Assembly: GCA_050486305.1 (NCBI GenBank)
Contig: JBJHDA010000001.1
Coordinates: 435,071 to 499,070 of the forward strand
DNA from: Candidatus Saccharimonadota bacterium
Lineage (GTDB): Bacteria > Patescibacteriota > Saccharimonadia > Saccharimonadales > SLHW01
Direction of reading: 5' to 3'
Length of the DNA stretch: 64,000 nucleotides
Below, one piece after another: positions 9,694 to 53,498 of this stretch (its first letter is position 1; every line of letters starts with the position of its first letter). The translations under genes were made by a program, and so were the position numbers. The notes beneath the pieces were generated by a model that saw only the letters and a program-made list of their open reading frames with translations, was not told the origin of the DNA and searched no databases.

Positions 9694-9710
9694 CGGTTTA
9701 TACTGGTCAT

Positions 9711-21941: not shown

Positions 21942-22055
21942 CTAAGAAGCAAAATATCTTTCCCGGTTTACAGCCGGGCTTGGATGGAGCACCTTTTCTG
22001 CTGTTAGCAGCTAGGTTGCCGGTAGGTCTGAAAGCCAAGTCTCTCGCTACACTCT
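21942..22055 (-). promoter_or_regulatory. SAM-I-clan-like riboswitch aptamer candidate upstream of metK
   Basis: Minus-strand read: GAGAGACUUGGCUUUCAGACCUACCGGCAACC, a hairpin (CUGCU-AAC-AGCAG), AAGGUGCUCCAUCC, then a hairpin (CCCGG-CUGUAAA-CCGGG). The GGCAACC and GGUGC(N)AUCC junctions match SAM-I/SAM-IV core junctions. I could not identify P1 or P2 convincingly. Confidence 0.45.
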
Positions 22056-22113
22056 TTATATCTTTAAATTGTTAACGTTTAGTACTATACGGCACCCATC
22101 GAAAACACGCAAC

Positions 22114-22621: not shown

Positions 22622-22695
22622 TGGGATGTAGCCAAGCGGTAAGGCAACGGGTTCTGGTCCCGTGATCGGGGGTTCGAATCCCTCCATCCCAGCCA
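22622..22695 (+). tRNA. tRNA-Gln (anticodon CUG), CCA encoded
   Basis: Manual cloverleaf: acceptor TGGGATG/CATCCCA, short D-stem GCC/GGC, anticodon stem ACGGG/CCCGT with loop TTCTGGT, T-arm GGGGG-TTCGAAT-CCCTC, discriminator G, CCA. A hairpin plus T-run follows. Confidence 0.9.
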
Positions 22696-28773: not shown

Positions 28774-29142
28774 ATGAGTGAGGCCTATAACATACAGCAT
28801 AATCAGCCGGAACTGGCTGAAGCACCAAAGCCAGTCGAGCAAGTCCGTATCCACTCACTACGATCAAAACTTGTATTAGGTGAGTGGGCCGCGGAAGCTG
28901 CTTGTGCAGAAATGGATTCAGACATTTTCTTCCCAGACGAACAGCGCAACTCCCGTATAAACAAGGAGTTGACTGCTGAAGCAAAACAAATCTGCAGCGA
29001 ATGCCCGGTCCGTGAAGAGTGCCTCGACTATGCTCTCGAAAATCACCGAGAAATGCTCGGTGGCATCTTCGGCGGGTACACTGAAAAAGAACGAAAACGG
29101 CTACTTGGCTTGCGCCAAAGGACTCGACGGACGAAACCATAA
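28774..29142 (+). CDS. WhiB-family (Wbl) Fe-S transcriptional regulator
   Basis: Four Cys in the Wbl pattern (C-x29-CSECPVREEC) plus a GIFGG turn and a basic tail (KERKRLLGLRQRTRR). Confidence 0.8.
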   Translation: MSEAYNIQHNQPELAEAPKPVEQVRIHSLRSKLVLGEWAAEAACAEMDSDIFFPDEQRNSRINKELTAEAKQICSECPVREECLDYALENHREMLGGIFGGYTEKERKRLLGLRQRTRRTKP

Positions 29143-34906: not shown

Positions 34907-35899
34907 GTGAGCAACGAAAAAATGGAACAAGAACCTGGTTATAAAGCAGAGGAAATGCCCGAAACGGAAGCGCCCTTATTTGAGCAGTCCGGCGAGACAG
35001 ACGTCCAGGAGTTCGGTGAGCAGCCTATCGATGCAACAACCGAAGAGCACAATGATAAACCCGAAGAGCAAGAAGCCGAAAGCAGCGCAATCGAGTACGA
35101 AGTTAGCTATCGCTGCGAATCTACAGAAACGTGGCAGTTTACTATCGATGCCACAAACGAAGGCGACGGCATATTTACCAGCACGGTAGCCCCGCATGGC
35201 GGACCTGACCCTGAATCTGATGAGTTCAACCCAGACGTCGTGCACCCCTTCAATCTCGAAGCCGGAGAGTCAGACTCCCTAACCGTAGGCGAACTGCCGC
35301 GAGATATCGCTTGGTACGAGTGGGCCACCGAAGACGAATTAGTAGAAGAGCTGCGCGATGAAACGGTAGATTATACCGGGTGCGAAACAGCAGAACCAAA
35401 GCCAGACAAAGAGCCAGAAGCAGAACTCGGGCCGTTGCCGATGTCGGTATCAATCGGTTGTGTCACAGAAGATACGTGGGAGTTTACGATAGATGCAGGC
35501 TGGGCTGGCGAAGGTACTTTTGAAAGCATTGTTGCCCCGCATGGCGGACCTGACCCTGAGTCTGATGAGTTCAACCCAGATGTCGTGCACCCGCTTAATC
35601 TAGAGCCTGGCGAGACCGGCTCAGTCACGGTAACTGATTTACCAGAAGTTGCACACTATGAGTGGACGACGGATGATGAAGTACTGCTATCGCTGCAAGG
35701 CAGCCAGGTAGACTTTTCTGCTTGTGCCCCTGAGCAAGTAGTAGAAGAAGAAAAAGAAGAAGAAACTATTGCAGAAACCAAAGAGCCAGAGGAGCTGCCT
35801 GAAACCGGCATGCACGCTGCTCCAGAGATCGCTGCGCTGGGGTTTGTTGCCCTCGCGGCCGGTAGCTACTTGGTTTACCGGGGCCGCAAACACGCTTAA
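34907..35899 (+). CDS. LPXTG-anchored acidic surface protein with two ~115-aa internal repeats
   Basis: C-terminal LPETG, hydrophobic helix and RGRKHA sorting signal. Internal duplication (TWQFTIDA...VAPHGGPDPESDEFNPDVVHP repeated, DNA ~35186-35262 vs ~35531-35607). No N-terminal signal peptide is visible, and an in-frame TGA lies 9 nt upstream of the GTG start. Confidence 0.75.
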   Translation: MSNEKMEQEPGYKAEEMPETEAPLFEQSGETDVQEFGEQPIDATTEEHNDKPEEQEAESSAIEYEVSYRCESTETWQFTIDATNEGDGIFTSTVAPHGGPDPESDEFNPDVVHPFNLEAGESDSLTVGELPRDIAWYEWATEDELVEELRDETVDYTGCETAEPKPDKEPEAELGPLPMSVSIGCVTEDTWEFTIDAGWAGEGTFESIVAPHGGPDPESDEFNPDVVHPLNLEPGETGSVTVTDLPEVAHYEWTTDDEVLLSLQGSQVDFSACAPEQVVEEEKEEETIAETKEPEELPETGMHAAPEIAALGFVALAAGSYLVYRGRKHA

Positions 35900-36093
35900 A
35901 GTGTTTCACCCTTTTTGTTGAGTCTGGGAGTAGCTCAAAAACAGCGGGAACTTTACTCACCTAGCATGTTTTTATGTTCACAAGCAAACTCTTCCTGCTG
36001 TAAAACAACACTCAGCCAAACATCAGGTAAATAGAGTTGTGTTGTCATTATGGTTTTGCTTACTTGGCAAAAGTAGTATTAGATAGAATATAT

Positions 36094-37569
36094 ATGAGTC
36101 AAAACCCAGAAATACCTCACTCCTTATACCCTGTGGCGTTCGGAAACGAAGAAGAGACCGGTATGCTGATCGACCACGGTGAAGGGTTTGATGAGCCGTA
36201 CGGTCTCGTGCAAGGCATCGAGTACTACGTACCAGAAAATCTCCGTGGCCATAAAAGCTTCCTTACGAACGGGGCAAAGATTTATGCTGGCGGTACAGGT
36301 GATGAAACCGAAGGGCTGACGAACCTTGAGCGCGCCACCGCGGAGTGCTCGACGCTAGATCAGCTCGTCGCTCGTATCCGCGCGAACGAGAAACTACTTA
36401 TTGACGTATCCAGCACCTACGCCAAAAAATACGCTGATACGCACGATACACCGGTGCATGTACGCATTCAGCGGCGTGTCGTCGACGGCCACGGTAGCCG
36501 CAAAGGCTGCCACGACAACTTCTCTGTCAATGGTAAAGACATTAACGATCCGAGCGAACGCACCAGCTTCCGTCTGCACCCGATGGTGCTAGGGCATATC
36601 GTTACGAGGTCGTTCGTCAGCGGTGCCGGGCATTTTACAGATAACGGTACGCATTACGGTCAAAAAATCGGCGGTCTAGTACAAACCGAAGGTCGTAGAT
36701 ACGGCGGTACGGTATATCGGATTACATCAGGCGGTGCCAACGAACGGCTAGAAGTCCGCTCGAACGATATCAACATCTCCGACTGGGCTATCCGGAGTCG
36801 TGTGGGCAGCACCGCCCTCGCGCTTGCGGTTGCAGGTACTGAGCTGGCAGATGGTTTTTCTGCGCACGCCAGTCACAACCAATACTTCGCCATGGCAAAT
36901 TATTTCAACGAGCTCAACCTACACCGTGACGGCAGCATCGAAGCGTCCGGTGCACAGCACGAAGCACTCGATTTCCAGATGCGACTCGCCGAGGTGGCGC
37001 TGTTCGAGCTCGAGCATATCGCTGGACCGTTGCCAGATGATCTGCGCACCGCCGCCGAAGAGCTTTACTTCTTTTGCCGCGATTACAAACAAGTCCTCGA
37101 TCAGGACGCCAGCGTTCGGTTGTTGGCCGATCGCGCTGATTGGGCTGCCAAGGCAGCGTATGTGCTAGACCGTATCGATGCCGACCAAAATAACGGTGTG
37201 CTCCGCAGCACTCACGATATCCAGGCCCAGGCAGATGATCTGCGCTACGATCATATCGCGCTGCGAGCAGTACCAGGCCTTAAGTCGCCTCGGGTGACGC
37301 ACGGCTATGGTTATAAACACCGTGATGCAGGTAATCTCAAGCACTCCGCATCGGAAAAAGATGTCGCTCGCGCTTACTGGCAGGCTCCGGAAACGACACG
37401 TGCCCATGAGCGCGCCAGGATATTAAAGGAAGACAAGGTCACCCATTGTGACTGGCACACCGTGAACCACATCCAGTCAGACGGCACGTACCGCTACACA
37501 ACCTTGCCGAATGCCGCCGGTACGCCAGTCGACATGCAAAAAGTCGTTGAATTCTCCAGCAAGATCTAG
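36094..37569 (+). CDS. Pup-ligase/deamidase-family protein (PafA/Dop-like), orphan
   Basis: FGNEEETGM (cf. GIETEYG), FLTNGAKIYAGG...ERATAEC (cf. NGARLY.D.GSHPEYATPEC), GCHDNFSV (cf. GCHENY), and C-terminal DWAAKAAYVL (cf. DWV.K). Start moved to the ATG at 36094 (MSQNPEI). Confidence 0.7.
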   Translation: MSQNPEIPHSLYPVAFGNEEETGMLIDHGEGFDEPYGLVQGIEYYVPENLRGHKSFLTNGAKIYAGGTGDETEGLTNLERATAECSTLDQLVARIRANEKLLIDVSSTYAKKYADTHDTPVHVRIQRRVVDGHGSRKGCHDNFSVNGKDINDPSERTSFRLHPMVLGHIVTRSFVSGAGHFTDNGTHYGQKIGGLVQTEGRRYGGTVYRITSGGANERLEVRSNDINISDWAIRSRVGSTALALAVAGTELADGFSAHASHNQYFAMANYFNELNLHRDGSIEASGAQHEALDFQMRLAEVALFELEHIAGPLPDDLRTAAEELYFFCRDYKQVLDQDASVRLLADRADWAAKAAYVLDRIDADQNNGVLRSTHDIQAQADDLRYDHIALRAVPGLKSPRVTHGYGYKHRDAGNLKHSASEKDVARAYWQAPETTRAHERARILKEDKVTHCDWHTVNHIQSDGTYRYTTLPNAAGTPVDMQKVVEFSSKI

Positions 37570-37699: not shown

Positions 37700-38455
37700 T
37701 TACGTTAGTTTCTCCCACAAAATCTGAAAGGCCATCTTGTGCATGTTTACCACGCCTTCGTCTTCTAGTAAGACGCCATACGGCTCCTTGGTTTTTGATA
37801 TAGAAAAGATCGCTATTTTATTGGCGTATATAACCGTATAGCTCGTTGGGTCTAGTACGGTCTCCTTTACATACTTGCGTTCAGAAAACTCAGACTCTCC
37901 CCCGCCTTCTCCTACAGCAATCACGTGGGCATAAATGCCATACCGCACCCGACGCTTCGTATAATCTTCAAAAAACCGATACAGCTCCTGCCGGATTGAT
38001 TGGGAGGCATACACCCGTATTAGCTTTTCCTCTTCTTTTCTCATTGTGTTTAGAACATCTCGGAGCAAGGCTGTAATGCCATCATAGCCCTCGTACACGC
38101 CAATGCTTGCCTTGCCGAGCGCGGTCGATTTTATGCCTTTTAGTAATGGGATGGTGTTCTTCACATCACTTTTGGCGTATGTTAGCTCGTTTTCTTTCTG
38201 GCTAGCCAGCCGCATAAGAAACGAAGGGTCTTCTGCAGTGTAGCGAAGCTGCTTATTTGTCGGCTGGGCCTTCACAAGCCCCATATCTTGTAGCTTAATC
38301 AGCGAATTATAAACAACTCCACGATTCAGATTGGTTTGCTTGGCGATTTTCCGTACCGAAAGCTGCTCATATTGCAGTAACGCATAATAGACGCTAAAAT
38401 CCCTCGGCTCTAGGCCGAGAAACTGCAGTGTTGAGGGCGAAATAATATCATTCAT
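37700..38455 (-). CDS. TrmB-family transcriptional regulator
   Basis: N-terminal winged helix (FSVYYALLQYEQLSVRKIAKQTNLNRGVVYNSLIKLQDMGLV) plus a TrmB-type C-terminal domain. Confidence 0.7.
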   Translation of the reverse strand: MNDIISPSTLQFLGLEPRDFSVYYALLQYEQLSVRKIAKQTNLNRGVVYNSLIKLQDMGLVKAQPTNKQLRYTAEDPSFLMRLASQKENELTYAKSDVKNTIPLLKGIKSTALGKASIGVYEGYDGITALLRDVLNTMRKEEEKLIRVYASQSIRQELYRFFEDYTKRRVRYGIYAHVIAVGEGGGESEFSERKYVKETVLDPTSYTVIYANKIAIFSISKTKEPYGVLLEDEGVVNMHKMAFQILWEKLT

Positions 38456-38551: not shown

Positions 38552-39466
38552 ATGGAGCGAGAGAACTCCAGGGAGACATACGACGGGAGGCGGCCGGGCT
38601 TAACGCAGCGGCAATATGTTACTGGTGGCGAAGAAGAATCAAACCTAAAGCGCCGCTGGCGGGCATACGACTTTATGATCGGCGGTAACACTTTCACCGA
38701 GGAGTACTTAGGCGCCCTTGAGGTATCACCCAACGAATCTGTTGCAGATATCGGCTGCAACGAAGGGCGAGACCTCGCCTACCTAAGACAGCTCGGGCAT
38801 GTCGGGCTATCTATCGGTATAGATGTAGACCCGCAGATCTTCGAAACGTCCCCGCACTACCGCAGCCAAGCACCAGAGCGACCCATCCAATTTATTAGCG
38901 CGCGTGCCGAAGCACTTCCGCTCGAACCGCGCTCGCTAGATGTTATCACCGCTTCTTTTATGCTTTATCACGTTGCCGAGCCAGACAAAGCACTACGCAA
39001 CATGAGTGAATGCTTACGGCCTGGCGGGCGGCTCGGCATCACAACAAGCGGCCCAAATAACAAGCCGAGACATAGAGCATTCGAACGCAAGATCGCTCAG
39101 CACCTCGGCGTAACGCCGCCGCCGCTGTTTAACGCATCCTTTGATAGCCATAAGTTACGTGACATCTACAGGAGCTGGCCAGGCCCAGCAACTGTGCACG
39201 GACTCGCCACATCAGAGTTCGATGACATGAAGCTACACGAAGAAAACAAAGCAATTCGCTTTACGAACGAAAGCTACGGTGCGTACATTGACTCGCTAGC
39301 GAGCATGCGCAGCGAATTTAACCCATCACTTGCAGATGACGACAGCGTCTGGCGCGAGGCAATCGAGGCAGTCGTTGAGCCAGAAATTACCGAGGCAATC
39401 AAATCTGCGGGGTATTTTGAAGATAGTGTAGAGCGAGCCTACTTAATTTGCAGAAAACGCACGTAA
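38552..39466 (+). CDS. Class I SAM-dependent methyltransferase
   Basis: Motif I VADIGCNEGRD and post-I/II motifs (ITASFMLYHV, LRPGGRLGITT). Confidence 0.75.
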   Translation: MERENSRETYDGRRPGLTQRQYVTGGEEESNLKRRWRAYDFMIGGNTFTEEYLGALEVSPNESVADIGCNEGRDLAYLRQLGHVGLSIGIDVDPQIFETSPHYRSQAPERPIQFISARAEALPLEPRSLDVITASFMLYHVAEPDKALRNMSECLRPGGRLGITTSGPNNKPRHRAFERKIAQHLGVTPPPLFNASFDSHKLRDIYRSWPGPATVHGLATSEFDDMKLHEENKAIRFTNESYGAYIDSLASMRSEFNPSLADDDSVWREAIEAVVEPEITEAIKSAGYFEDSVERAYLICRKRT

Positions 39467-39568: not shown

Positions 39569-39898
39569 TCAATTATCAGATAGGCGGTACGCGACTGATT
39601 GTCCCGCATCGCCTATCTGCTGCGCCTTGCCCTCGGCTTCTAGTTCATTCATATACCGCACTACGGTATTTCGCGATACGCCTAGGGCATCACGAATGTC
39701 TTCGTTCCCCATTTCACCGTTTTCTTGCAGCAGCTCCAGTACCCGCGCCTTGCGCGCTTCTTTCTAGCTGGTCCGCTCCAGCGCCACCGCGCAAACCCCC
39801 ATCACATCACTGCTAACCTGCTTCACCCTCTCCTTCGTCGGCCGATGCACCAGCAAAAACAGAACGGCTACAGCCAGAGCAATAACAAGATAAATCAT
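39569..39898 (-). pseudogene. Small membrane-anchored winged-helix HTH regulator, interrupted by an in-frame TAG (copy 1, full length)
   Basis: Minus-strand translation: MIYLVIALAVAVLFLLVHRPTKERVKQVSSDVMGVCAVALERTS-TAG-KEARKARVLELLQENGEMGNEDIRDALGVSRNTVVRYMNELEAEGKAAQ... The TAG at 39764-39766 aligns with CAG (Gln) in the paralog at 41768-42010. Confidence 0.65.
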
Positions 39899-40006
39899 GG
39901 TTTGATTATACCAATCAATAAAAAGTATTGACTTATCGTTCATATTGTAGTATTGTAGTAGAAGGTTTCAAAAGTACCCCCTCCAAGTAACAACGAGGAG
40001 GATACT

Positions 40007-41799: not shown

Positions 41800-42010
41800 T
41801 GTCTCTAGGAGGTGTAAGGGTTATTTCATCGTTTTCTTGCAGGAGCTCCAGCACCCGCGCCTTGCGCGCTTCTTTCTGACTGGTGCGCTCTAGCGCCACC
41901 GCACAAACCCCAACCACATCACTGCTAACCTGCTTCACCCTCTCCTTCGTCGGCCGATGCACCAGCAAAAACAGAACGACTATCGCTAGCGCAATTACGA
42001 TATAGATCAT
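41768..42010 (-). pseudogene. Truncated copy 2 of the TM-HTH gene (5-prime 188 bp conserved; the HTH part is replaced by unrelated sequence)
   Basis: 41823-42010 aligns with 39711-39898 at high identity. The ORF MIYIVIALAIVVLFLLVHRPTKERVKQVSSDVVGVCAVALERTSQKEARKARVLELLQEND then diverges and runs antisense into the 3-prime end of the glycosyltransferase gene. Confidence 0.6.
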
Positions 42011-42065
42011 ACCTCGAGTTTAACATTTACAGAAACTCAGCGATGCCAATACCTGATGATTGATA
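42011..42065 (-). repeat. Upstream/promoter segment U (copy A) of the TM-HTH gene
   Basis: About 55 bp, nearly identical to 43475-43529. On the minus strand it contains TTGGCA, then a TAAATG/TAAACT-like box, then GAGG before the ATG. Confidence 0.6.
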
Positions 42066-42140: not shown

Positions 42141-43367
42141 CTAAGATGACATGTCGATTTCTTTCAAGTCTAGCTGAACCCTGTATTCCTTTAACTGAAT
42201 AATTTCACCTACAGGCTTGATGGCAGAGAGGAGCGTTTTATCGGCTTCACCTACGATGATGAGACCTCTTACTTTTTTACCGTTGGCTAACTGGTCTTTC
42301 ACCCAGCTTATGTAGTTAAGTATTTGGCCAACTACTTTATAACCTGATGAATCACGCTTGAGCTCAATTACAACGAAGTCACCGTTTTTATCTGTTGCAA
42401 GAATGTCAATTATGCCTACATCTGTTGTGTATTGTTGACCTGTATTTCCAACATCATCAACATACATTGATAAATCTTCACCAAAATTAATATTTGCCCA
42501 ATTATTAACAACGTACTCTTCCAGGTGTTCTTCTAGTGGCATAAAGCCGGTATAATCATCACTTACAGCGGATTTTAGTCTTGTGCTGTCGGGTTCAATC
42601 TGAATTTCATTTGAATCTTCTGGGTTTACTTCTTCAGCTTTTGAGTGTGAATACTGCCTAGCGGTTACAAAGATAACGTCTTGAGTAACCCATCTGAATT
42701 CTGAGTCTTTAAACTCTAGGCCATCAGTGAGCGATTCACGAATTTCTTTAAACTCAGCTCTTTGTTTAACTAATTTCCTAAGACCTTCAATATATTCGTT
42801 ATAAAGTTTGTATTGTTCACCTGGCGGAGTCTTATGAGGGATCTTGAATTCTGGGTTTATGAATCGTGAAAAGACCTTCCATTCTGCTGGCTTTAATGGA
42901 TTGTATAAGTCTGGGTACTTGAATCCTAACAGCAAAGATATAAACCGTAGGTTTATATAAGTATTAGCTGGAGGATGTCCATTTTTTTTGCTTCGTTTCT
43001 TTTCAAGTTCATCGAAAGCAGTCTTAGTTCTATTGATTCGTTCAGCAACATCTACATTGTTGTCAAACAGATGTTTCAGTATTTCGCGTGTTTCATCTGG
43101 GTAGTCTTCTGCATAGTGCATCAACATCCGTTTAGGAAAAAACATTGATCCCGCAACGAGGTTATTATTAAGTATTGAGTCGTCGATATTGCCAGCTAAA
43201 TCTAGAGATTCAATGTCAAAGTGTGTTTGAAAGTGATTTACTGATTCAAACTTATAGCCCTCATGCTGCTCAACGTGTTTCTGTATGCCGTGTTTACGAA
43301 CGTGATTAAGAAATATTCTTAGCCAATCGTTGTAGCGACTTGCCTCATCTTCCTTCACTGTATTCAT
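42141..43367 (-). CDS. PD-(D/E)xK nuclease-domain protein (NucS/DUF91-like C-terminus) with an unknown ~300-aa N-terminal region
   Basis: C-terminus TDVGIIDILATDKNGDFVVIELKRDSSGYKVVGQILNYISWV matches the D...(D/E)xK...Q..Y pattern of NucS-like nucleases. I do not recognise the N-terminal part. Confidence 0.6.
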   Translation of the reverse strand: MNTVKEDEASRYNDWLRIFLNHVRKHGIQKHVEQHEGYKFESVNHFQTHFDIESLDLAGNIDDSILNNNLVAGSMFFPKRMLMHYAEDYPDETREILKHLFDNNVDVAERINRTKTAFDELEKKRSKKNGHPPANTYINLRFISLLLGFKYPDLYNPLKPAEWKVFSRFINPEFKIPHKTPPGEQYKLYNEYIEGLRKLVKQRAEFKEIRESLTDGLEFKDSEFRWVTQDVIFVTARQYSHSKAEEVNPEDSNEIQIEPDSTRLKSAVSDDYTGFMPLEEHLEEYVVNNWANINFGEDLSMYVDDVGNTGQQYTTDVGIIDILATDKNGDFVVIELKRDSSGYKVVGQILNYISWVKDQLANGKKVRGLIIVGEADKTLLSAIKPVGEIIQLKEYRVQLDLKEIDMSS

Positions 43368-43393
43368 ACTAATGTCCTCTCAAATTAATAGTT

Positions 43394-43474
43394 TTATCGT
43401 ACTATACTATTCTCCGGCCGATGCAAAAATAAGAATGCCTCCACCAAAGCCAAAGCTACTAATAGATAAATCAT
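43394..43474 (-). pseudogene. Copy 3 remnant of the TM-HTH gene 5-prime end (26 codons), now a leader ORF upstream of the nuclease gene
   Basis: MIYLLVALALVEAFLFLHRPENSIVR-stop. It shares the MIY...LFLLVHRP start and the CGGCCGATGCA DNA segment with copies 1 and 2. Confidence 0.5.
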
Positions 43475-43529
43475 ACCTCGAGTGTAACAATAACAGAAAC
43501 TCAGCGATGTCAATACCTGATGATTGATA
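43475..43529 (-). repeat. Upstream/promoter segment U (copy B)
   Basis: acctcgagtgtaacaataacagaaactcagcgatgtcaatacctgatgattgata compared with 42011-42065. A few mismatches. Confidence 0.6.
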
Positions 43530-43624
43530 GCTATTCCGGTAGAGCAGATTATCTAAGGTGCTGGCGATTCAATACTGTAATCTGAATTGCTTATAATACT
43601 AAGCAGAAAGGAGGACATACAAAA

Positions 43625-43717
43625 ATGAGTGATATTGATAACAGCTACGAACTACAAAAGATTCGTGAAGCACTGCAAAGTATTGCTAGCACACTGAGCT
43701 ATATCGCGCACAAATAG
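43625..43717 (+). CDS. Small ORF (30 aa) with a strong RBS
   Basis: AAAGGAGGA lies 8 nt upstream of the ATG, with a TATAAT-like box at ~43592. Peptide MSDIDNSYELQKIREALQSIASTLSYIAHK. Not in the ORF track (under 60 aa). Confidence 0.35.
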   Translation: MSDIDNSYELQKIREALQSIASTLSYIAHK

Positions 43718-43740
43718 GATATTTTATTATTACGGATTTA

Positions 43741-46700
43741 TCATTTTGCCACTTCGCGGCTCCAGTCGTCGCCGAAGAGGTTGGCCTGTTCGAGTACTAG
43801 GTCGGTGGCCATTTTTTGTTGATCTGGTGGATAGCCGTATTGGTTGAGTAGCTTCTTTACTTCAATGCGTAGGCGGGCTTGGGCACTTTCACGAACTTGC
43901 CAGTCTACACTTACGTTCTTGCGGATTTTTTGTACCAGCATTTGAGCAAGCTCACGTAACTGAGCGTCTTGCATGACTTCTTTGGCGCTTTCGTTCATGA
44001 TAAGCGCATCGTAAAAGGCTACTTCGTCTTCGTTGAGTCCCTCTACCCTACCTGCTTCGCTTTCTGTACGGATCTTTTTGGCTAACTCTATAAGCTCTTC
44101 GATGACTTGGGCAGCTTCGATAGTTTGGTTACGGTACCGGGTCAGAGTTTCTTCAAGCATTTCCGAGAATTGCCGTTCACGCACTGCGTTTTTAGAGAAT
44201 TTGGCCTTAACTTCATCATTTAGTAGTTTTTGCAGAGCTTCGACGGCAAGGTTTTTGCGCTGCATGCTCCGCACTTCTTCTAAGAATTCATCAGATAATA
44301 TCGATAGGTTTGGCTTATCAAGTCCAGCGGCCGAGAATATATCTACGACGCCTACGGGAGTAATGGCTTTATCTACAATCTGCCGTATGGCTAGACGGTA
44401 ATCATCATCTGTTGGTCCGCCTCTGCGATCAACTTTATCTAGTCGAGCCTTTACTGCCTGGAAAAATGCGACTTGTTCGCGAATAGCTACTGCTTCTTCG
44501 TGTGGCATGGCCAGTGCAAAGGCCTTGCTTAGCTCCAGTACATGTTGCTTCAGCCGCTTCATGCCGTTTTCTTGCGCGAGTATGAATTCTTCTGCGTCGA
44601 GAATAATCTGCAGCTGTTCATTAGTGTCTGCCGTGAAGTAACGCATATAGTCGAAGCCATAAAAGAGATTTTGCACAATCTCAAACTTTTGTTTCATCAG
44701 CGCCACTGCCTCAGTGATATCGAGCGCTGGCTGGCCTTCGCCGCCGCTTTCGGTGTAATCGTTGAGCGCTTCTCGCAGTGCAGCCGCTACTCCCAGGTAG
44801 TCCACGACTAGACCTCCTTCTTTGCCAGGATATACGCGGTTCACTCGGGCGATGGCCTGCATGAGCGTGTGGCCTTTGAGCGGTTTGTCTAGATACATAG
44901 TGTGGAGGTTCGGCACGTCAAAGCCAGTTAGCCACATATCACATACAATCACCAGCTTTAGGTCGTTGCTCGGGTCTTTCATTCGCTCTGCCAATCGGCC
45001 TAGCTTGTCTTTGCTATGGATGTGCTTTTGCAGGCTGCCTTCATCATCTGCCGAGCCAGATATTATTACCTTGATAAAGCCTTCGTCTATGTCGTCTTTG
45101 TGCCACTCGGGTCGTAGCTGAATGATCTTTTCGTATAGATCAGCAGCAATACGGCGACTCATGGTTACGATCATTCCTTTGCCATCTATGGCTTCGAGTC
45201 TACCCTCGAAGTGCTTAATAATATCTTCTGCTATCAATTGCAATCGGTCACTATCGCCGACGATGGCTTCTTTTTGTGCAAACTCAGCTTTGAGTTTTTG
45301 CTGGCGGGTTGCTTCTTCGCCTTCTAGCAGATCGCCGACTTCTTTGTCGAGCCATTGCTTGGTTTCTTCGTCCAGGCCGAGGTCGATTAGTCGGCTTTCG
45401 TAATAAATAGGCACAGTTGCCTTGTCTTCTACGGCTTGGTGTACGTCATAAATGTCTACGTAGTTACCAAACACTGCTGGGGTAGAGCGGTCATCTTGTT
45501 CGATCGGTGTACCAGTAAAGCCGATGTAGCTGGCCTCTGGCAAGGCGTCACGCATATACTTGGCATAGCCATACACTAGCTGTGCGTCGCTTTGGCGGAT
45601 GCGAGCTTTTAGGCCGTACTGGCTGCGGTGTGCCTCGTCTGCGATCACGATGATGTTGGTACGTTCACTCAGGGTTGGTAGATGATCTTCATCCTCGCCT
45701 GGCGAGAACTTCTGGATAGTCGTAAAGATCACGCCGCCGGCATCGCGGTCTAGTAGTTCTCGTAGCTGCTTGCGAGTAGTTGCCTGTTTCGGCTTCTGGC
45801 GGAGTATGTCTTGGCAGCTAGCGAATGTGTTAAACAATTGACCGTCAAGGTCATTACGGTCGGTCACGATCACGAGCGTCGGATTCTTTAGCTCGCTAGA
45901 GAGGATGAGCTTGCCAGCATAGAACACCATACTAAGTGACTTGCCTGAGCCTTGGGTGTGCCAAACCACACCAGCACGGTGGTCGCTGTCTGGCTGAGCC
46001 GACTTTTTGGTGGAAGCAACGGCTTTGTTGACCGCCCAGTATTGGTGGTATGCGGCGACTTTTTTGATGTACTTTTCTTCTTTGAGTCCTTCGCGCTCAA
46101 AGACGATGAAGTGTCGGACTATATCAAGTAGCCGCGACTTATCAAATACGCCGCGGAGCATTACGTCTAGTTGCGGTACGTTGCTCTTTAGTTTTTCGCC
46201 CTCTATCGTCTTCCACGGCATAAATCGTTCCAGCTGGGCGGATATTGTGCCGAGCCGGGCTTCGTGCCCGTCGCTGATAACGCATAGTTCATTAAAGCGG
46301 AATAGTGAGCCAATCTGGTCTTTATATGTTTGTATTTGGTTGAACGCGCGCTTGACGTTTGCCTTTTCGCTGGCGGCATTCTTTAGCTCTATCACGACCA
46401 GTGGCAGACCGTTTACAAATAGCACGATGTCTGGGCGGCGATTGTGTTCACCCTCCACTACGGTAAATTGATTGACTGCCACAAAGTCGTTGTATTGCGC
46501 CTGATCAAAGTCAAATAGCTTAACTACTTGAGTGCGGATCGTTCCGTCGTTATCGCGATACTCTACATGCACTCCGTCTATTAGTAGCTTATGAAAGGCG
46601 TGATTATCTAGCACGAGGTCTGGGCTGTTACTGCGCAATGTTTTTTTGATAGCTTCTTGTCGGTCGGTTTCGGTTAGACTCGGGTTTATCCGCGCAACGG

Positions 46701-46845
46701 CATCATCTAGCCTGCCAACCAATGCCACCTCGCTGTATTCTCGCTCTCCAGAGCCATCTGGCCCGATGTCTGGCCCAAACAGCACTTCCCAGCCAAGCTC
46801 ACGTAATGTATCTAGTGCTGATTGTTCAATCTTGTCTTCTGTCAT
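43741..46845 (-). CDS. hsdR: Type I restriction enzyme, R subunit
   Basis: 1034 aa. N-terminal PD-(D/E)xK region (DIVLFVNGLPLVVIELK), helicase motifs HTQGSGKS and VIADEAHRSQ, and a typical C-terminal helical domain. Confidence 0.92.
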   Translation of the reverse strand: MTEDKIEQSALDTLRELGWEVLFGPDIGPDGSGEREYSEVALVGRLDDAVARINPSLTETDRQEAIKKTLRSNSPDLVLDNHAFHKLLIDGVHVEYRDNDGTIRTQVVKLFDFDQAQYNDFVAVNQFTVVEGEHNRRPDIVLFVNGLPLVVIELKNAASEKANVKRAFNQIQTYKDQIGSLFRFNELCVISDGHEARLGTISAQLERFMPWKTIEGEKLKSNVPQLDVMLRGVFDKSRLLDIVRHFIVFEREGLKEEKYIKKVAAYHQYWAVNKAVASTKKSAQPDSDHRAGVVWHTQGSGKSLSMVFYAGKLILSSELKNPTLVIVTDRNDLDGQLFNTFASCQDILRQKPKQATTRKQLRELLDRDAGGVIFTTIQKFSPGEDEDHLPTLSERTNIIVIADEAHRSQYGLKARIRQSDAQLVYGYAKYMRDALPEASYIGFTGTPIEQDDRSTPAVFGNYVDIYDVHQAVEDKATVPIYYESRLIDLGLDEETKQWLDKEVGDLLEGEEATRQQKLKAEFAQKEAIVGDSDRLQLIAEDIIKHFEGRLEAIDGKGMIVTMSRRIAADLYEKIIQLRPEWHKDDIDEGFIKVIISGSADDEGSLQKHIHSKDKLGRLAERMKDPSNDLKLVIVCDMWLTGFDVPNLHTMYLDKPLKGHTLMQAIARVNRVYPGKEGGLVVDYLGVAAALREALNDYTESGGEGQPALDITEAVALMKQKFEIVQNLFYGFDYMRYFTADTNEQLQIILDAEEFILAQENGMKRLKQHVLELSKAFALAMPHEEAVAIREQVAFFQAVKARLDKVDRRGGPTDDDYRLAIRQIVDKAITPVGVVDIFSAAGLDKPNLSILSDEFLEEVRSMQRKNLAVEALQKLLNDEVKAKFSKNAVRERQFSEMLEETLTRYRNQTIEAAQVIEELIELAKKIRTESEAGRVEGLNEDEVAFYDALIMNESAKEVMQDAQLRELAQMLVQKIRKNVSVDWQVRESAQARLRIEVKKLLNQYGYPPDQQKMATDLVLEQANLFGDDWSREVAK

Positions 46846-47885
46846 TCTATCTCTCTCAGTCCATAGTATACATCGAAGCGCTCCTTCTCCTTATCATCTA
46901 GTTGGCCTATGAAAAAACTAAACAACTCTAAGGCAAGAGATTTTACATCCTCGTCTAATCCTATACCGTAGACCTGATTGTTTGTCATCATTGCATCCTT
47001 GATCGCAGCTAATTCTTCTTGTCGGTAAAAATCTAGGCTATCGTGAATTCTGGTAACTACATTGTGAGTTGAACTAAAACTCCCTGAAGCCTGCAGGCTG
47101 CTTGGATCTTCAATGAGCAAAGAATCCGATGTTTTTATAATCTCTTTACTTGTAGCGTCTTGAAGCACAAGTGTTGAATATTCTTCATAGTCAAACTGGC
47201 TAACAACATCAGTGTTTCTGTTGACCCAATTATCCCTCAGTATAGCCTCAGGTTGCTCTAACTCATTTCTAATAGCACCGACTGTGTAGTCATCAAAAAA
47301 CACCCTGCTTAGTTCTTTCGCTATCTCATCCGGGCTTAAGCAAATTATTTCTTGCCTGTTTTTGTAATACTCTTTAAGTCTACCGTCCATGCAAGCTAAA
47401 TAGTATACATCGTATGTTTTTTGCTTCAAAAAATCATCGATTGTGCATGCTATAAGAGCATCTTTTATGCCTTTGTCGGAGTTATTTTTACCATTACTGT
47501 TTCGCATATTAAACGGTGGATTGCCAGGAATTACCCATTTGCGAATTTTCTTGTACGCCTCCACAGGATCTTTGATGTCAATCACCTGGTACGGTATATC
47601 CTCCATGATTTGTAGTTTACGAACATGTTCTTGCTCGTTTACAGTCTCCAGTGCAGTCGTGTCAAATCCGAGCATTGGTAGCAAAGAATTTCGCTTCAAT
47701 ATATTTAAATTTTCTTGAATACCCTCGGTCTTCTGCTGCACTAATTCATCGATAACAATTTGAGGCATGTATATCGTTGCCCGCTGGGATATTTTGATTA
47801 GTGTATCTCTTCGGCCGAAAAAAGCTTGCTGCGTACGATCTGCGTAACATGAGTTGGTATCAAAGATGACTGCAATTTTCGACAT
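46842..47885 (-). CDS. PIN-like (DUF4935-like) domain protein embedded between hsdS and hsdR
   Basis: N-terminal IAVIFDTNS, QIVIDELVQQ and DKGIKDALIACTI give the ordered acidic residues of PIN-like nucleases. The C-terminal ~170 aa is unknown. It overlaps hsdR by 4 nt. Confidence 0.5.
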   Translation of the reverse strand: MSKIAVIFDTNSCYADRTQQAFFGRRDTLIKISQRATIYMPQIVIDELVQQKTEGIQENLNILKRNSLLPMLGFDTTALETVNEQEHVRKLQIMEDIPYQVIDIKDPVEAYKKIRKWVIPGNPPFNMRNSNGKNNSDKGIKDALIACTIDDFLKQKTYDVYYLACMDGRLKEYYKNRQEIICLSPDEIAKELSRVFFDDYTVGAIRNELEQPEAILRDNWVNRNTDVVSQFDYEEYSTLVLQDATSKEIIKTSDSLLIEDPSSLQASGSFSSTHNVVTRIHDSLDFYRQEELAAIKDAMMTNNQVYGIGLDEDVKSLALELFSFFIGQLDDKEKERFDVYYGLREIE

Positions 47886-47891
47886 GTTTTT

Positions 47892-49055
47892 TCATACCTT
47901 TAATTCCCCGGATATTAAGCGTGGTAAAAGTGAATCACGTAAGCTTGAGAGAATAGCTATATTATTTATATTCAAAATAATCTGATCTACGATATCATCG
48001 AGTTGGCCAACTTCTTGTTTTTGCTCTTTTGGTATAAAAATCTTCATATGATCAATAGACTTTCCAGCGTGTTTAATTGTAGTACCCGTTGAATACACGT
48101 CTATCACCCTTTGAGTAGTCGGTGATTTCATATAAAAATATATGTACCCGCTAGAAATGCTTTCGTGCTTTGAGGTAATTTTTTGAATCCCACTAGAGTA
48201 AGCTCCTTCATATCCAACCCTGACCATACCGGGTGCACCATCAAATGAAACTAGTACATTGTGTTTATTTACAAAGCAGCCGTTTGCTATATCTTTTTTT
48301 ATGTAAACTTCGGATCCTTTATTTGTTAAATCACCTACTCGGTAAAAACTAATTGTGTCTTCGTGGGGCTCCGCTTCATATTTTTTTGAGCCAGGCTCAA
48401 TCCCTCGTTTAAAATTTAATACATCTTTTGCGGGCTTACCTTCAAGCTTCTCAGTCTCAGGATTGTCGATGAAGTAGTGCTTGAAGAGGGCTTGGCCCAT
48501 TTGCTCCAGCGTTTCATTCATTTGCCGATTCAATTCAATCTTTTCATTAATCTTGCCTAGAATTTCTACAATCTTTTGCTGCTCTTGTAGTTTGGGGAGA
48601 ATAATCTTAATAGTCTTTACGGCCTTGGTCGGGGTAGCTATCGATGGTACACCAACCTGTGCAGCATGCTGCATTAACTCATGCTGACCAATTGCGGATT
48701 TCATATAATAAAGTAGGTATCTCGGATTTACCTTGTTCTTATTTAGAGACATCCGTAACTGTGATTGTGAAGCTAAATAGTAGGGATACTTTCCATGCGG
48801 GACAATACTCACTTGCCCAAGAGTTCCACGATGGGTAACAACAATATCATCAGGATATGCAAGGCTACGTTTTAACGATCGCGCCTTCTCTTCGCTAACA
48901 AATGAGAAATCACCACCTACTTCATATCCGTAAAGATTCCCGCCTTTAATAACAGGAACACCCGCCTCAATGAAGTTATCTGCTTTGAGATTTGATCCAA
49001 AAGGACCCATCGCAAGATCGACAAGCAAATCTCCAAGCAAAACAGTCTGAGTCAT
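47892..49055 (-). CDS. hsdS: Type I restriction enzyme, S (specificity) subunit
   Basis: Two target-recognition domains separated by conserved helices (LPEQQKIVEILGKINEKIELNRQMNETLEQMGQALFKHYF and a C-terminal LRDSLLPRLISGEL). Confidence 0.88.
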   Translation of the reverse strand: MTQTVLLGDLLVDLAMGPFGSNLKADNFIEAGVPVIKGGNLYGYEVGGDFSFVSEEKARSLKRSLAYPDDIVVTHRGTLGQVSIVPHGKYPYYLASQSQLRMSLNKNKVNPRYLLYYMKSAIGQHELMQHAAQVGVPSIATPTKAVKTIKIILPKLQEQQKIVEILGKINEKIELNRQMNETLEQMGQALFKHYFIDNPETEKLEGKPAKDVLNFKRGIEPGSKKYEAEPHEDTISFYRVGDLTNKGSEVYIKKDIANGCFVNKHNVLVSFDGAPGMVRVGYEGAYSSGIQKITSKHESISSGYIYFYMKSPTTQRVIDVYSTGTTIKHAGKSIDHMKIFIPKEQKQEVGQLDDIVDQIILNINNIAILSSLRDSLLPRLISGELKV

Positions 49056-49444
49056 CTTGACACCCTCCCTGCTTTCTTGGCGAGCTTTGTAAATTTCTTC
49101 TGTTCGTCCATAAGTACTTCTGGATTTTTTACATAATGACTTGCTTGACGTTCGTGTTGCTCAAAGTCGAGTGCAGTTTCTATCCCACACTGACGGCAGA
49201 AGTGGCTTAGTGTACCTGCAGGCTTATAGTACAAAGAACGAACTTCGAATTCCTTACCCTCCAGTACAATAAGTGCAAAATGTGGGCACGCGTTTTTGAG
49301 TTTGATTAGGTTGTTCGAATCACGTCTTTCGAGAAATTTATTTATGTCAAAAGATATCCTGATTGCAATTATTGATACGACCGTCAAAATGAACAGCCCG
49401 ACGAACTGCCAAAAAGTCAGGCCCGTATTAAAGATCCCGTTCAA
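49052..49444 (-). CDS. Small membrane protein with a Cys/His cluster (embedded in the R-M operon)
   Basis: N-terminal TM helix (LTFWQFVGLFILTVVSIIAI), then ACPH...HFCRQC (Zn-ribbon-like). Overlaps hsdS by 4 nt. Confidence 0.5.
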   Translation of the reverse strand: MNGIFNTGLTFWQFVGLFILTVVSIIAIRISFDINKFLERRDSNNLIKLKNACPHFALIVLEGKEFEVRSLYYKPAGTLSHFCRQCGIETALDFEQHERQASHYVKNPEVLMDEQKKFTKLAKKAGRVSR

Positions 49445-49472
49445 AGCTTACTCCCGCGCAAAACAGTCTGCG

Positions 49473-49976
49473 TCATTTTTTCTTCTCCCATTTCTTCGTA
49501 GGAAATTGACTAAAATACGGTCCACGCAAATCAGATAATTTATCAAGTTCAGCATGGATTCTAATTTGCTGCTCGGCATGATTTTCTGCTTGTTCGCCGA
49601 CATCAAAAAATTCCCCACCGTACAAAATACCTTTACCTCCAATGTATGTACCGTGCGCAAACATGTTACGAATTTTTAACCAGTTCTTAAACAATGACTT
49701 ATTCAGCTTGTTTTTGTCACCGAGCAAGCGTTTATAGATTTTGGCCAAGATGTTTATTTTGGTATCTAGTGATATGCCTCGGCCGTTCATCAAATCGTAC
49801 ATAAATGCTAAATAAATAGGCTGGTAGTCCGCGTTTGGGCAGCGCGTATAAAACTCTGCCACATAAGCGTTTATCATGTGTTCTATGGATGTAGCTTGCG
49901 TTATAACCCTTCCGATTAATGCCTGATCCATAATAAGCTTGGAGGTTAAATCATCTGACAAGTCAGCCTTGGTCAT
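49473..49976 (-). CDS. HEPN-motif protein (Abi-like, putative RNase) embedded in the R-M operon
   Basis: Rx4H motif in KIRNMFAHGTY within an all-helical-looking ~167-aa protein. I prefer the ATG at 49976, with GAGG 6 nt upstream, over the ORF-track start at 50015. Confidence 0.5.
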   Translation of the reverse strand: MTKADLSDDLTSKLIMDQALIGRVITQATSIEHMINAYVAEFYTRCPNADYQPIYLAFMYDLMNGRGISLDTKINILAKIYKRLLGDKNKLNKSLFKNWLKIRNMFAHGTYIGGKGILYGGEFFDVGEQAENHAEQQIRIHAELDKLSDLRGPYFSQFPTKKWEKKK

Positions 49977-50511
49977 TTTTCGCCTCGATACTGTTACGGT
50001 GAGCATTTTTTGCACTTAACAGAAGACTGTACTCTTTCGGCTTCACTTGAACGTCGTAATCGTTGATAAGGGGCCTCATGAGGCGAATTGCTCCGCTTCT
50101 CAACCCTCGATTAGATAATCCAATATCCCGCCTCATCTCTCTGAATACATTGGTCATTAAAACCATGGTGTAAAATCCATTGCCGGGCTGATCGCTCCTA
50201 TATGTATTTTGCAGCATATCGGAATATGCGTTAATTACTCTCGGCGCAGAGTAAAGCACTGCGGTTTTGTGAAAGTCTTTCATTCTCTTAACGATATCTT
50301 TTTGTTGCTCTGGTGTAGCTCCTGTTTTTTGATCTTGTACGTCGGCTAGAAACTGCAAGATAAAGTTTACATACTCCTGGTACATCTCTCGTTTAATCTC
50401 AGCATTCCTAGAGCTGAACTGCGCCTTCTTGTCTAGCGAATACTTAATCAAGTAACCAACTATACCACTTGATATAATGCCGACAAGAGTGAGCCAATTT
50501 TCTGTTGTCAT
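49963..50511 (-). CDS. Single-pass membrane protein of unknown function (embedded in the R-M operon)
   Basis: N-terminal TM helix (WLTLVGIISSGIVGYLI). The remainder looks helical with no known motif. ATGA overlap with the upstream gene. Confidence 0.5.
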   Translation of the reverse strand: MTTENWLTLVGIISSGIVGYLIKYSLDKKAQFSSRNAEIKREMYQEYVNFILQFLADVQDQKTGATPEQQKDIVKRMKDFHKTAVLYSAPRVINAYSDMLQNTYRSDQPGNGFYTMVLMTNVFREMRRDIGLSNRGLRSGAIRLMRPLINDYDVQVKPKEYSLLLSAKNAHRNSIEAKNDQG

Positions 50512-51188
50512 TCGTTGCCTCTTTTCCTAAACCTGACACTAAGAAAGCCAAAACTCAATTCTGGAGTAATCTCAATTTTTCGTAACAGTCGAAATTTTCT
50601 TTTTGAGTCTTTCACGCTGCTACGAGTTACGTTCAGCAAAGTTTCTGAATTATAACCTTGGGTTGTTATTGCTCCTGATTCGACTGCTCCAAAATCATTG
50701 CCGGCATATTTTATCTTGTGCCTCTTTAGCTCGGATTTTTCGATACTTCCAAATACGAGCATATGGCCATAACCAAGATCATCAAACGCCGCCTTAATGC
50801 CAGCGAGGAATATACCGCCTATATCTTGGCGGTAGATATCCGGAATATTTTTTTCTGTAGAAGGTAGCGTTGAAACATAGCGCATGTGTTTGGCTATTGC
50901 GGCACACAGTTCAATAAACCTTTTGGGGCTTGGCTCGATTTCTAATCGCTCGAATACTAGAGCTGTCTTGCTGTGATTATCGAGCTCTTTAGTGTTTTTA
51001 GTCGGGCATTTTTCACCCATTAATCGCCAAACGTTTTGATACGATGCGCTGATAACATCTGCGAAACGTCCGTAATCGAGCAATGAATATTCATTAAAGA
51101 GCGAGTTCTTGATTCGCTCGAATGCATCAGGCGTCATCGGATTATTGACAGGTTGGCTCGGTAAGTCTGCAATTTTTTTATAAATCAT
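50508..51188 (-). CDS. Hypothetical protein (first gene after hsdM in the R-M operon)
   Basis: 226-aa ORF overlapping the hsdM stop by 11 nt. No recognisable motif. Confidence 0.5.
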
Positions 51189-52668: not shown

Positions 52669-52781
52669 CGTAATACTCCTGGTTATAAGTCGCTCAGTCA
52701 ATCTGACGTTGCAGTGTAAGAATTTTAACATCTTATAAGGTGTTTTTCCACGCTCAGAGGCTAGCCTTAGTTTGTAGTAGA

Positions 52782-53498
52782 ATGAACCTAATGGATAAGT
52801 TATCAAAATCTGCTCATCAATGGGTCAGAGAAAATCGTAAAAAACTACTACAAGAATTTTGCTCCGACACTATTTATAAATCTCAGGGACAGCCTTCAAC
52901 CATATTCATGGCTGGTACTCCTGGAGCGGGAAAAACAGAATTCTCAAAAAAATTGATCGAAGAGTTCCCGGTAAAGATGGTACGTATTGACGCTGATGAA
53001 ATCAGAGAGCTAATGCGCGACATCGGCTATAACGGTGCAAACGCAAAAGTATTTCAGACTGCTGCAACGAAAGGCGTTAACCAACTTTACGATCAAGCGT
53101 TAAAGAAAGGATATAGCGCAGTCGTTGATGGGACATTTTCATATGGGAGCTGGAGAGAGAACATCGATAGATCTTTAGGTAGAGGCAGACTAGTTGAGAT
53201 TTATTACTTATATCAAGAACCGGAAATTGCTTGGGATTTTGCAAAAAGGCGCGAAGCAAATGAAGGTCGAGCAGTCCCAGCAGAAACATTTATCGATGCA
53301 TATATTAAATCAATAAGAAATGTAAATGAAGCGAAGCGCATATTCGGGAACAAAGTCAAAGTAAATTACGCCGAGAATGACTATCGAAAAAATGTCAAAA
53401 AAATCGAGCTTGATATCGATAATGTTGAAAGATATCTACCTAAAATATATAATGAAGACGAGTTAAAAGGTTTGTTGCATGAAAGAAGCAGTTCGTAA
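52782..53498 (+). CDS. Zeta-toxin-family P-loop kinase
   Basis: Walker [15 protein letters not shown] followed by RIDADEIRE, typical of zeta toxin/AAA_33-like kinases. Start uncertain (52782 or 52791). Confidence 0.65.

Follow-up and report, generated by a model that had tools for sequence, protein, structure and literature searches.

A PafA/Dop-family gene without a Pup neighbor points to a third, Saccharimonadia-specific branch of the family

The 64,000-nucleotide stretch analyzed here (the window) comes from Candidatus Saccharimonadota bacterium (GenBank assembly GCA_050486305.1, contig JBJHDA010000001.1, positions 435,071 to 499,070), and at its positions 36094 to 37569 (+ strand) it carries a gene for a 491-amino-acid protein related to the Pup ligase PafA and the depupylase Dop. 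We consider it moderately probable that this target protein is a cytoplasmic, stand-alone, ATP-dependent carboxylate-amine ligase with a substrate that is not Pup, from a deep branch that is specific to Saccharimonadia and sister to PafA and Dop. A non-Pup substrate is probable because no Pup gene lies alongside the gene and because the catalytic aspartate is missing from the protein. What is new, as read from the sequences, is a third branch of the PafA/Dop family that appears to be Pup-less, specific to Saccharimonadia, and of an ancestral type in strand 6, with the sub-branch of the target protein lacking the canonical aspartate.

To our knowledge, pupylation is the only ubiquitin-like tagging system native to bacteria, and its two enzymes, PafA and Dop, have been regarded as a closed pair always accompanied by Pup. 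A third branch of the family without a Pup neighbor would show a second job for the fold, would supply a natural outgroup for tracing the path from a small-molecule ligase to a protein tagger, and would extend, by one candidate enzyme, the short list of functions catalogued for bacteria of the candidate phyla radiation (CPR). Homologues of PafA and Dop have been surveyed in Actinobacteria, Nitrospirae, NC10, Armatimonadetes, Verrucomicrobia, Nitrospinae, Firmicutes, Proteobacteria, and Planctomycetes (PMC7947786, PMC2588565); CPR and Saccharibacteria go unmentioned in these surveys. Our full-text literature search linking pupylation, PafA, or the proteasome with Saccharibacteria, CPR, or TM7 found nothing relevant.

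Family assignment and phylogeny

The coding sequence (36094 to 37569, + strand; 491 amino acids plus stop) is supported by the list of open reading frames (ORFs), by Pfam PF03136, by an independent gene call, and by the N termini of homologues. In the first-pass annotation of the window, the gene had been recognized by four family motifs, and all of these are found in the translation of what is a real ORF: FGNEEETG (residues 16 to 23), NGAKIY...ERATAEC (residues 59 to 85), GCHDNF (residues 138 to 143), and DWAAK (residues 349 to 353). The proposed membership of the PafA/Dop family, with its carboxylate-amine ligase fold, is borne out by Pfam, by a profile of the clade described below, and by Foldseek. 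The target matched PF03136 (Pup_ligase) with 93.9 bits (E = 1.4e-26; gathering cut-off, 25), and the clade profile aligned end to end with PafA (4B0T; E = 2.5e-26) in a hidden Markov model (HMM) alignment. The AlphaFold2 model of the target, made from 27 homologues, had a predicted local distance difference test score (pLDDT) of 89 and a predicted template modeling (TM) score of 0.90. Its top Foldseek matches were PafA and Dop (E = 1e-21 to 1e-18), including PafA 4BJR (E = 1.6e-21; TM score, 0.71) and Dop 4B0R, 5LRT, and 7OXY (TM scores, 0.69 to 0.74). These matches extend over ~500 aligned columns and thus take in the family-specific C-terminal domain. By these matches, the target truly belongs to the PafA/Dop fold family and has its complete two-domain architecture, i.e., a glutamine synthetase (GS)-like beta-sheet cradle and a C-terminal domain.

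The profile search gave no placement in any other carboxylate-amine ligase family. The next structural matches were YbdK/GCS2 proteins (1TT4 and 1R8G; E about 1e-6), followed by GS (E = 1e-5 to 1e-4). The target shares with both groups the beta-sheet cradle and the Ex[RK]x2D motif of strand 6; however, there is no significant sequence similarity to them (hhalign E = 0.12), the structural match is partial (TM scores, 0.3 to 0.5), and the target contains the C-terminal domain and helical insertions specific to PafA and Dop. The motifs of the superfamily (Ex[EH], the acidic residues of strands 2 and 3, [HD]x[NH], Ex[RK]x2D, and two arginine fingers, R209 and R218 in the target) are all present and conserved. 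Among the family motifs, GhExE in strand 1 and [HQ]x[NH] in strand 4 each occur in >95% of the clade; the PafA-family strand-6 motif [QH]x4D is absent from the target, which has Ex[RK]x2D instead.

As judged from its sequence, the target appears to be neither PafA nor Dop, since it scores far under the cut-offs of both equivalog models: 67.6 bits with the PafA model TIGR03686 (cut-off, 551.3) and 44.6 bits with the Dop model TIGR03688 (cut-off, 492.3). Ten other members likewise fell short of both cut-offs. Six further clade members (P0139, P0065, P0120, P0185, P0171, and similar) had 48 to 85 bits with both models, and the controls had 645.6 bits (a true PafA, P0067) and 550 to 595 bits (true Dop sequences). 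The names under which clade members stand in databases, "Pup--protein ligase" (the NCBI label of one homologue) and "PafA2 family protein," are without support from these membership tests, and such labels in Saccharibacteria genomes are flagged here as systematic misannotation.

With PafA (TIGR03686; 4B0T and 4BJR), the target shares the whole two-domain fold, the length, the lack of a Dop-loop, and the motifs GhExE, NG.[RK].Y, E..T.E, GCH[DE]N, DW..K, and TRA..R, as well as the arginine fingers and a C-terminal Trp. It differs from PafA in overall identity (~21%), in a Gly and an insertion at the position of Asp64, in the substitutions H to E220, I to R222, N to R128, R to K191, and E to D141, and in the lack of an adjacent pup gene.

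The similarity of the target to Dop (TIGR03688; 4B0R, 5LRT, and 7OXY) is about equal to that to PafA. The equivalents of the R90 and Y92 nucleotide contacts and the C-terminal-domain residues are found in the target, and the equivalent of the phosphate-binding R227 (R209 in the target) is mostly kept in the clade. These features would fit a Dop-like amidase or deamidase that hydrolyzes a gamma-glutamyl amide or isopeptide bond with bound ADP and phosphate. However, we regard such an enzyme as improbable. The target has no Dop-loop (40 to 65 residues before strand beta2), and its strand 1-2 region has a PafA-like length; PafA aligns to the clade profile from the N terminus, whereas Dop aligns only from position 55 onward. 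In addition, D94 of Dop is replaced by Gly and H241 by Glu, and the Dop model score is 44.6 bits versus the cut-off of 492. A further difference from Dop is that no Pup gene was found at the loci searched.

The clade to which the target belongs is large. A word-indexed search returned 65 full-length homologues at 33 to 48% identity, and when 1.84 billion representatives were searched exhaustively with the profile, 221 clusters came up at E <= 1e-30; among 150 listed of these 221 clusters, the clade-profile scores were 182 to 662 bits, compared to ~95 bits for canonical PafA on the same profile. The size of the clade is about 200 clusters at 50% identity. Every named close homologue is from Saccharimonadales or Saccharibacteria or is labelled merely "Patescibacteria group bacterium" or "bacterium." Scanned with peptides specific to the clade, GTDB (one genome per species) yielded 17 genomes with the gene, a lower bound, as the peptide patterns miss one subgroup (the "A2" Asp-type group). 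These genomes have Saccharibacteria or Saccharimonadales names, except for four labelled only "Patescibacteria group bacterium" or "bacterium," and the only other return of the scan was ordinary Micrococcus PafA.

In our neighbor-joining tree, a distance-based (Poisson-corrected) and effectively unrooted tree with few canonical sequences (verified PafA and Dop), the canonical group (PafA, Dop, and the intermediate sequence P0188) was split from the Saccharimonadia clade in 200 of 200 bootstraps. The mean identities of the clade were 21% to PafA and 22% to Dop, compared to 37% between PafA and Dop. Because of this split and these identities, the clade is best described as a putative third deep branch of PF03136 that is nested in neither PafA nor Dop. 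Since the tree is effectively unrooted, the position of the clade as sister to PafA plus Dop is an inference from the sequences. P0188 scored 246 bits with the PafA model, 227 bits with the Dop model, and 198 bits with the clade profile. Its features are mixed, with a PafA-like YLDVGQHPEY loop and a His at position 220, yet with the clade-like R128 and K191, and it may represent an intermediate lineage.

The Planctomycetes and other sporadic nonactinobacterial homologues (PMC7947786, PMC2588565) resemble the clade in being PF03136 members outside Actinobacteria and Nitrospirae, with one copy per genome. Compared by description, they differ in their reported identity to PafA and Dop (29 to 31%, versus ~21% for the Saccharimonadia clade) and in that pup is reported to adjoin the PafA homologue in every lineage examined, planctomycetes included (PMC2588565), whereas the clade has no Pup neighbor.

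Saccharibacteria live as episymbionts on Actinobacteria, the home phylum of PafA and Dop. This lifestyle, together with an actinobacterial-type WhiB regulator in the window, would fit a recent horizontal acquisition from a host actinobacterium, or else an effector directed against the Pup system of the host; we nevertheless find both very hard to credit. The GC content of the gene (0.52) equals that of its flanks, so nothing points to a recent insertion, and the identity to PafA and Dop is only ~21%. The clade is diverse, is confined to Saccharimonadia, is separated from PafA and Dop in all bootstraps, and has a strand-6 motif more ancestral than theirs. No signal peptide is visible in the target, in which catalytic strand 1 already starts at residue 15, and neither the PADLOC (antiphage defense) nor the PHROGs (phage) models matched the protein. 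The suggestion in the first-pass annotation of a horizontally acquired, repurposed ligase or amidase thus holds in one part: repurposing fits the evidence, whereas a recent acquisition is at odds with the GC content and with a deep, Saccharimonadia-wide clade that does not fall among actinobacterial sequences.

Active-site residues and strand 6

Residue conservation was counted over 177 full-length clade members, and the alignment register was set by HMM alignment to 4B0T, 4BJR, and 4B0R and checked against published numbering. In the alignment, residues R90, Y92, D94, H95, R227, H231, and H241 of the Dop chain match the numbering of Cui et al. (PMC8599861), and 4BJR, the chain of the PafA D64N mutant, has YLNV in place of the YLDV of the wild-type chain 4B0T. 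The register around position 66 is anchored by the invariant residues N59, G60, and Y64.

The conservation pattern indicates that the catalytic core of the clade is probably under purifying selection. E19, E21, E79, E84, D131, H140, R218, E220, R222, D225, R436, and R440 are each 95 to 100% conserved, and G17, N59, G60, Y64, N142, R172 with the GAG motif, N227, D349, W350, K353, T435, A437, and W454 are also kept across the clade. The coordinates of the motifs, all on the + strand, are as follows. The strand 1 signature G17-N-E19-E-E21 (36142 to 36156) is the GhExE Mg/ATP motif, the G, E, and E of which are found in 169 to 173 of the 177 members and in PafA and Dop. Strand 2 (N59-G60-A-K62-I-Y64-A-G66; 36268 to 36291) keeps the nucleotide-contact residues equivalent to R90 and Y92 of Dop and has Gly66 at the place of the catalytic Asp. 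Strand 3 (N77-L-E79-R80-A-T-A-E84-C; 36322 to 36348) has the acidic metal/ATP ligands E79 and E84 (each 176/177). R127-R128-V-V-D131...G-C-H140-D141-N142 (36472 to 36519) includes the strand-4 [HQ]x[NH] motif (D131, 168/177; H140, 170/177). R209 and strand 6, R218-L-E220-V-R222-S-N-D225-I-N227, span 36718 to 36774; D225 is invariant (177/177), and R209, the equivalent of the phosphate-binding Arg of PafA (R207) and Dop (R227), is present in 133/177. The C-terminal domain with D349-W-A-A-K353, T435-R436-A-x-x-R440, and W454 (37138 to 37455) contains residues common to PafA and Dop. In Dop, W453 stacks at the nucleotide-binding pocket (PMC8599861).

Several diagnostic substitutions set the clade apart from both PafA and Dop: N to R128 (173/177), E to D141 (163/177), and R to K191 (176/177), and in strand 6, H to E220 (175/177) and I to R222 (169/177). 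The first-pass annotation had noted that ERATAEC departs from the PEYAT(P/A)EC type, as it does by the change of Y to R80. It had not picked up the more important substitutions, which put G66 in place of the catalytic Asp, E220 in place of His, and R222 in place of Ile.

The GhExE, [HQ]x[NH], and strand-6 motifs were defined by Iyer et al. in 2008 (PMC2588565), who described Ex[RK]x2D as the strand-6 form in the rest of the superfamily and [QH]x4D as that of the PafA family. The strand 6 of the clade (E220-x-R222-x-x-D225) is of the former, GS/gamma-glutamylcysteine synthetase (GCS) type, where PafA and Dop have the latter; the target reads ERLEVRSND and Escherichia coli GlnA reads RRIEVRFPD. 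In hhalign, the clade profile matched GlnA locally at one place only, again strand 6; with E = 0.12, this match was not significant and is a matter of consistency only. We take the clade to have probably kept the superfamily-ancestral state, with that of PafA and Dop being derived, although a reversal is possible. This ancestral-type strand 6 is our strongest argument that the clade diverged before the ancestor of PafA and Dop rather than as a recent offshoot.

One further reading goes beyond the assignment of a non-Pup substrate, and we put it forward tentatively, as a minority possibility: the clade could be a Pup-independent, prepupylation lineage of PafA and Dop, a relative of the ancestor of Pup ligase and depupylase that performs another ATP-dependent ligation on a small-molecule or protein carboxylate. 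In that case, an exchange of genes between episymbiont and host might be relevant to the origin of pupylation, since the clade occurs in bacteria attached to Actinobacteria, and the large Asp-less branch would imply a second, undescribed way to complete the reaction on this fold.

Loss of the catalytic aspartate

Mutation of the catalytic Asp inactivates Dop, and PafA requires the same residue (PMC13091356). In Dop, D94 has been proposed to activate the hydrolytic water, with R227 and H241 holding the catalytic phosphate (PMC8599861). This Asp (D64 in the YLD motif of PafA; D94 in Dop) lies two residues past the invariant Tyr and corresponds to Gly66 in the target. Column 66 is Gly in 99 and Asp in 58 of the 177 clade members. 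The Asp-type members have a PafA/Dop-like six-residue loop (Y-x-D-x4-E) and form basal branches of the clade, and the branch of the target has Y-x-G-G, a variable insertion, and then the conserved T-N-[LI]-E-R. The Gly-type sequences were not strictly monophyletic in the neighbor-joining tree, so the Asp may have been lost more than once.

In the target, the clade-specific insertion between strands 2 and 3 comprises G67 to T76 (GTGDETEGLT; 36292 to 36321, + strand), and its length and sequence vary among relatives. The total loop length is 10 to 41 residues (median, 13) in 91 Gly-type members, in which no residue of the insertion is conserved. A compensating acidic residue in the loop was considered and rejected, as none is conserved and 14 of the 91 loops have no acidic residue at all. 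The pLDDT of the model falls below 50 at residues 69 to 72, and within the catalytic domain, low confidence is confined to this loop. Following the insertion, N77 (82/91) and R80 (72/91) are common to most Gly-type members but are not conserved in the Asp type. Comparison of 47 Asp-type with the 91 Gly-type sequences showed no systematic difference beyond the loop and these two residues; the other active-site residues are equally conserved.

The Asp-less branch might accordingly consist of pseudoenzymes or nucleotide-dependent binding or regulatory proteins, which would bind ATP and a ligand and have lost ligation. The loss of the general base of both characterized relatives, with no consistent replacement in the insertion, speaks for this view, which we nonetheless judge unlikely. 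The metal, ATP, and phosphate ligands are 95 to 100% conserved in the Asp-less as in the Asp-retaining branch, a constraint more typical of an active phosphotransferase, and the new conservation of N77 and R80 suggests that the pocket has been remodelled and has not decayed.

A local similarity to E. coli YbdK falls in the same region. Residues 62 to 104 of the target aligned with residues 43 to 84 of YbdK in hhalign, the sole local GCS2/YbdK match (E = 0.12; not significant), which covers KIYAGG...TNLERATPEC. The strand-2/3 loop of YbdK is also long and without an Asp after the aromatic position, a likeness that is suggestive as to how an Asp-less cradle could still ligate.

Genome context and the search for Pup

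Pup has been reported to "invariably" adjoin the PafA homologue in all lineages examined (PMC2588565). Our context data comprised the 64 kb of this genome and 23 nonredundant related loci (425 kb), with <=21 kb around each homologue. The first-pass annotation had described the gene as an orphan, with no small ORF ending in GGQ or GGE in its flanks and no Pup, proteasome, or Mpa gene nearby, and as to Pup and Mpa, this description extends to the whole window and to the related loci. No frame ending in GG[QE] was found in the 64-kb window or in the 23 related loci; of the 23 scattered frames ending in G[QE] in the same set, none is acidic, bihelical, or conserved. As a positive control, the same scan recovered Pup (...FVQKGGQ) beside PafA in four of four Micrococcus loci. 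Searches by tblastn with Pup, Mpa, Dop, and PafA of Micrococcus luteus matched only the target gene in each locus, the 125 small intergenic ORFs of the window gave no Pup-family match against Pfam, and no Pup, proteasome, or Mpa-type gene was seen among the Pfam labels around ten homologues. At the loci examined there is one family member per locus, with no pair of PafA/Dop-like paralogues.

These results bear on the possibility that the gene encodes an ordinary PafA whose pupylation system is dispersed, pup and perhaps also mpa or prcAB lying elsewhere in the genome. In its favor, the target falls within Pfam Pup_ligase, is built like PafA, and lacks a Dop-loop; moreover, one homologue carries the NCBI name "Pup--protein ligase," and the visible sequence is only part of the genome. 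However, we hold such a system to be decidedly improbable in view of the score of 67.6 bits against a cut-off of 551, the Gly66 at the catalytic Asp that PafA needs, a strand 6 that is not of the PafA type, and the lack of the reportedly invariable Pup neighbor from the 23 loci, the control being positive. The dispersed pupylation-like pathway that the first-pass annotation offered as its second option thus finds no support, as the catalytic Asp is absent from the protein and Pup is absent from 23 independent loci.

Clustering of the neighbors (ORFs of >=30 to 40 amino acids in 19 and then 24 loci) revealed no conserved partner gene and no small tag ORF, and a UBact-type tag gene beside the ligase was not found across the 24 loci, as judged by conservation and adjacency. 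The recurrent clusters that did appear were rejected, being antisense ORFs within conserved genes and the synteny of one subclade. In that subclade (L005 to L008), the divergent neighbor ~100 bp upstream belongs to a multicopy NUDIX hydrolase family and is followed by YaaA and BipA; in L001, a Zincin_1 metallopeptidase gene (9522 to 9923) takes the place of the NUDIX neighbor. This synteny was not accepted as a sign of partnership because it reflects shared ancestry rather than functional linkage. The downstream genes of ~200 amino acids in L028 and L029 are not homologous and were set aside as uninformative.

Proposed activity

In GS, E357 is a metal ligand and R359 is a ligand of the gamma-phosphate and acyl-phosphate. 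If the target is a ligase for a non-Pup substrate, as we favor, the conserved cradle residues suggest that Mg-ATP would bind in the beta-sheet cradle. By analogy with characterized superfamily members, the phosphoryl group would be transferred to a carboxylate, most likely the gamma-carboxylate of a glutamate, and the acyl-phosphate would then be attacked by an amine. E220 could serve as the metal ligand and R222 as the gamma-phosphate/acyl-phosphate ligand, after E357 and R359 of GS; in PafA and Dop, this job would be split between the His and the Arg-227-type residue. R128, R222, and K191 would make the pocket more basic than that of PafA and Dop, which hints at a more anionic or a smaller substrate. 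The Asp loss, the new loop, and N77 and R80 would all lie on the side from which the lysine nucleophile of PafA enters. The acceptor half-site would thus have been rebuilt, with the nucleophile either activated differently or intrinsically reactive.

Several points weigh against this interpretation. Without the Asp that PafA and Dop require, the target could be catalytically dead or could perform only the first half-reaction. Confidence in the model is low at the insertion loop, and the roles given to E220 and R222 lean on the analogy with GS, for which the GlnA profile match was not significant. No conserved neighbor hints at a substrate in the 24 loci, and a distant Pup-like gene could lie beyond the 64-kb window and beyond the <=21 kb covered around each homologue.

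Gene structure and other features of the window

The ATG at 36094 is favored as the start codon, as a public contig with an identical protein was independently called from there (491 amino acids) and as the homologue N termini align with this start. A start at the in-frame TTG at 36037 is less probable. The gene is effectively monocistronic, with an upstream intergenic region of 194 bp (35900 to 36093, delimited from the ORF list) on its 5' side and a convergent TrmB gene after a 130-bp gap on its 3' side. A scan for promoters and terminators found no convincing sigma-70-like promoter or terminator above the shuffle expectation.

The neighbors named in the first-pass annotation were all found. 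Upstream lies the gene for an LPXTG-anchored protein (34907 to 35899), whose C-terminal end shows LPETG, then a hydrophobic segment and a basic tail, and which matches TIGR01167 above the cut-off; this protein has a domain of ~110 amino acids in two tandem copies (…TWQFTIDA…APHGGPDPESDEFNPDVVHP…) that have no Pfam match. Downstream are the genes for a TrmB-type helix-turn-helix regulator (37700 to 38455, - strand) and a class I methyltransferase (38552 to 39466). PheS, PheT, a YajQ-like protein, and MetK of the window showed 46 to 68% identity to named Candidatus Saccharimonadales and Saccharibacteria loci and are partly collinear with them, which, along with the matching GC content, speaks for the target gene being native.

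A WhiB-family regulator, of a family typical of Actinobacteria, is encoded at 28774 to 29142 (E = 4e-22), and in two related loci (L032 and L034), WhiB genes lie 2 to 4 kb from the PafA-like gene.

A low-GC (0.39 to 0.45) defense island occupies 42141 to 52806. One of its genes encodes a NucS_C-domain protein that matches the PADLOC candidate PDC-S02 (E = 4e-32). The island also contains HsdR (43741 to 46845), HsdS (47892 to 49055), and HsdM (51178 to 52806), which form a type I restriction-modification system; a PIN_12-domain gene (46842 to 47885) and several small unassigned ORFs lie between the subunits. A direct repeat of 203 nucleotides (87% identity; 39711 to 39913 and 41823 to 42025) flanks a 2.1-kb segment that encodes an AAA_28 nucleoside triphosphatase-like protein and a GT1-family glycosyltransferase. 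Each copy of the repeat holds a similar small membrane-like ORF, and the arrangement looks like a duplication or insertion scar.

An S-adenosylmethionine (SAM) riboswitch (21951 to 22064, - strand; 46.1 bits; gathering cut-off, 44.4) is located upstream of the S-adenosylmethionine synthetase gene (20626 to 21732, - strand), with a tRNA gene (22622 to 22692, + strand) nearby. A protein of 1,585 amino acids encoded at 11197 to 15954 has lactonase/WD40-like beta-propeller matches in residues ~340 to 620 only.

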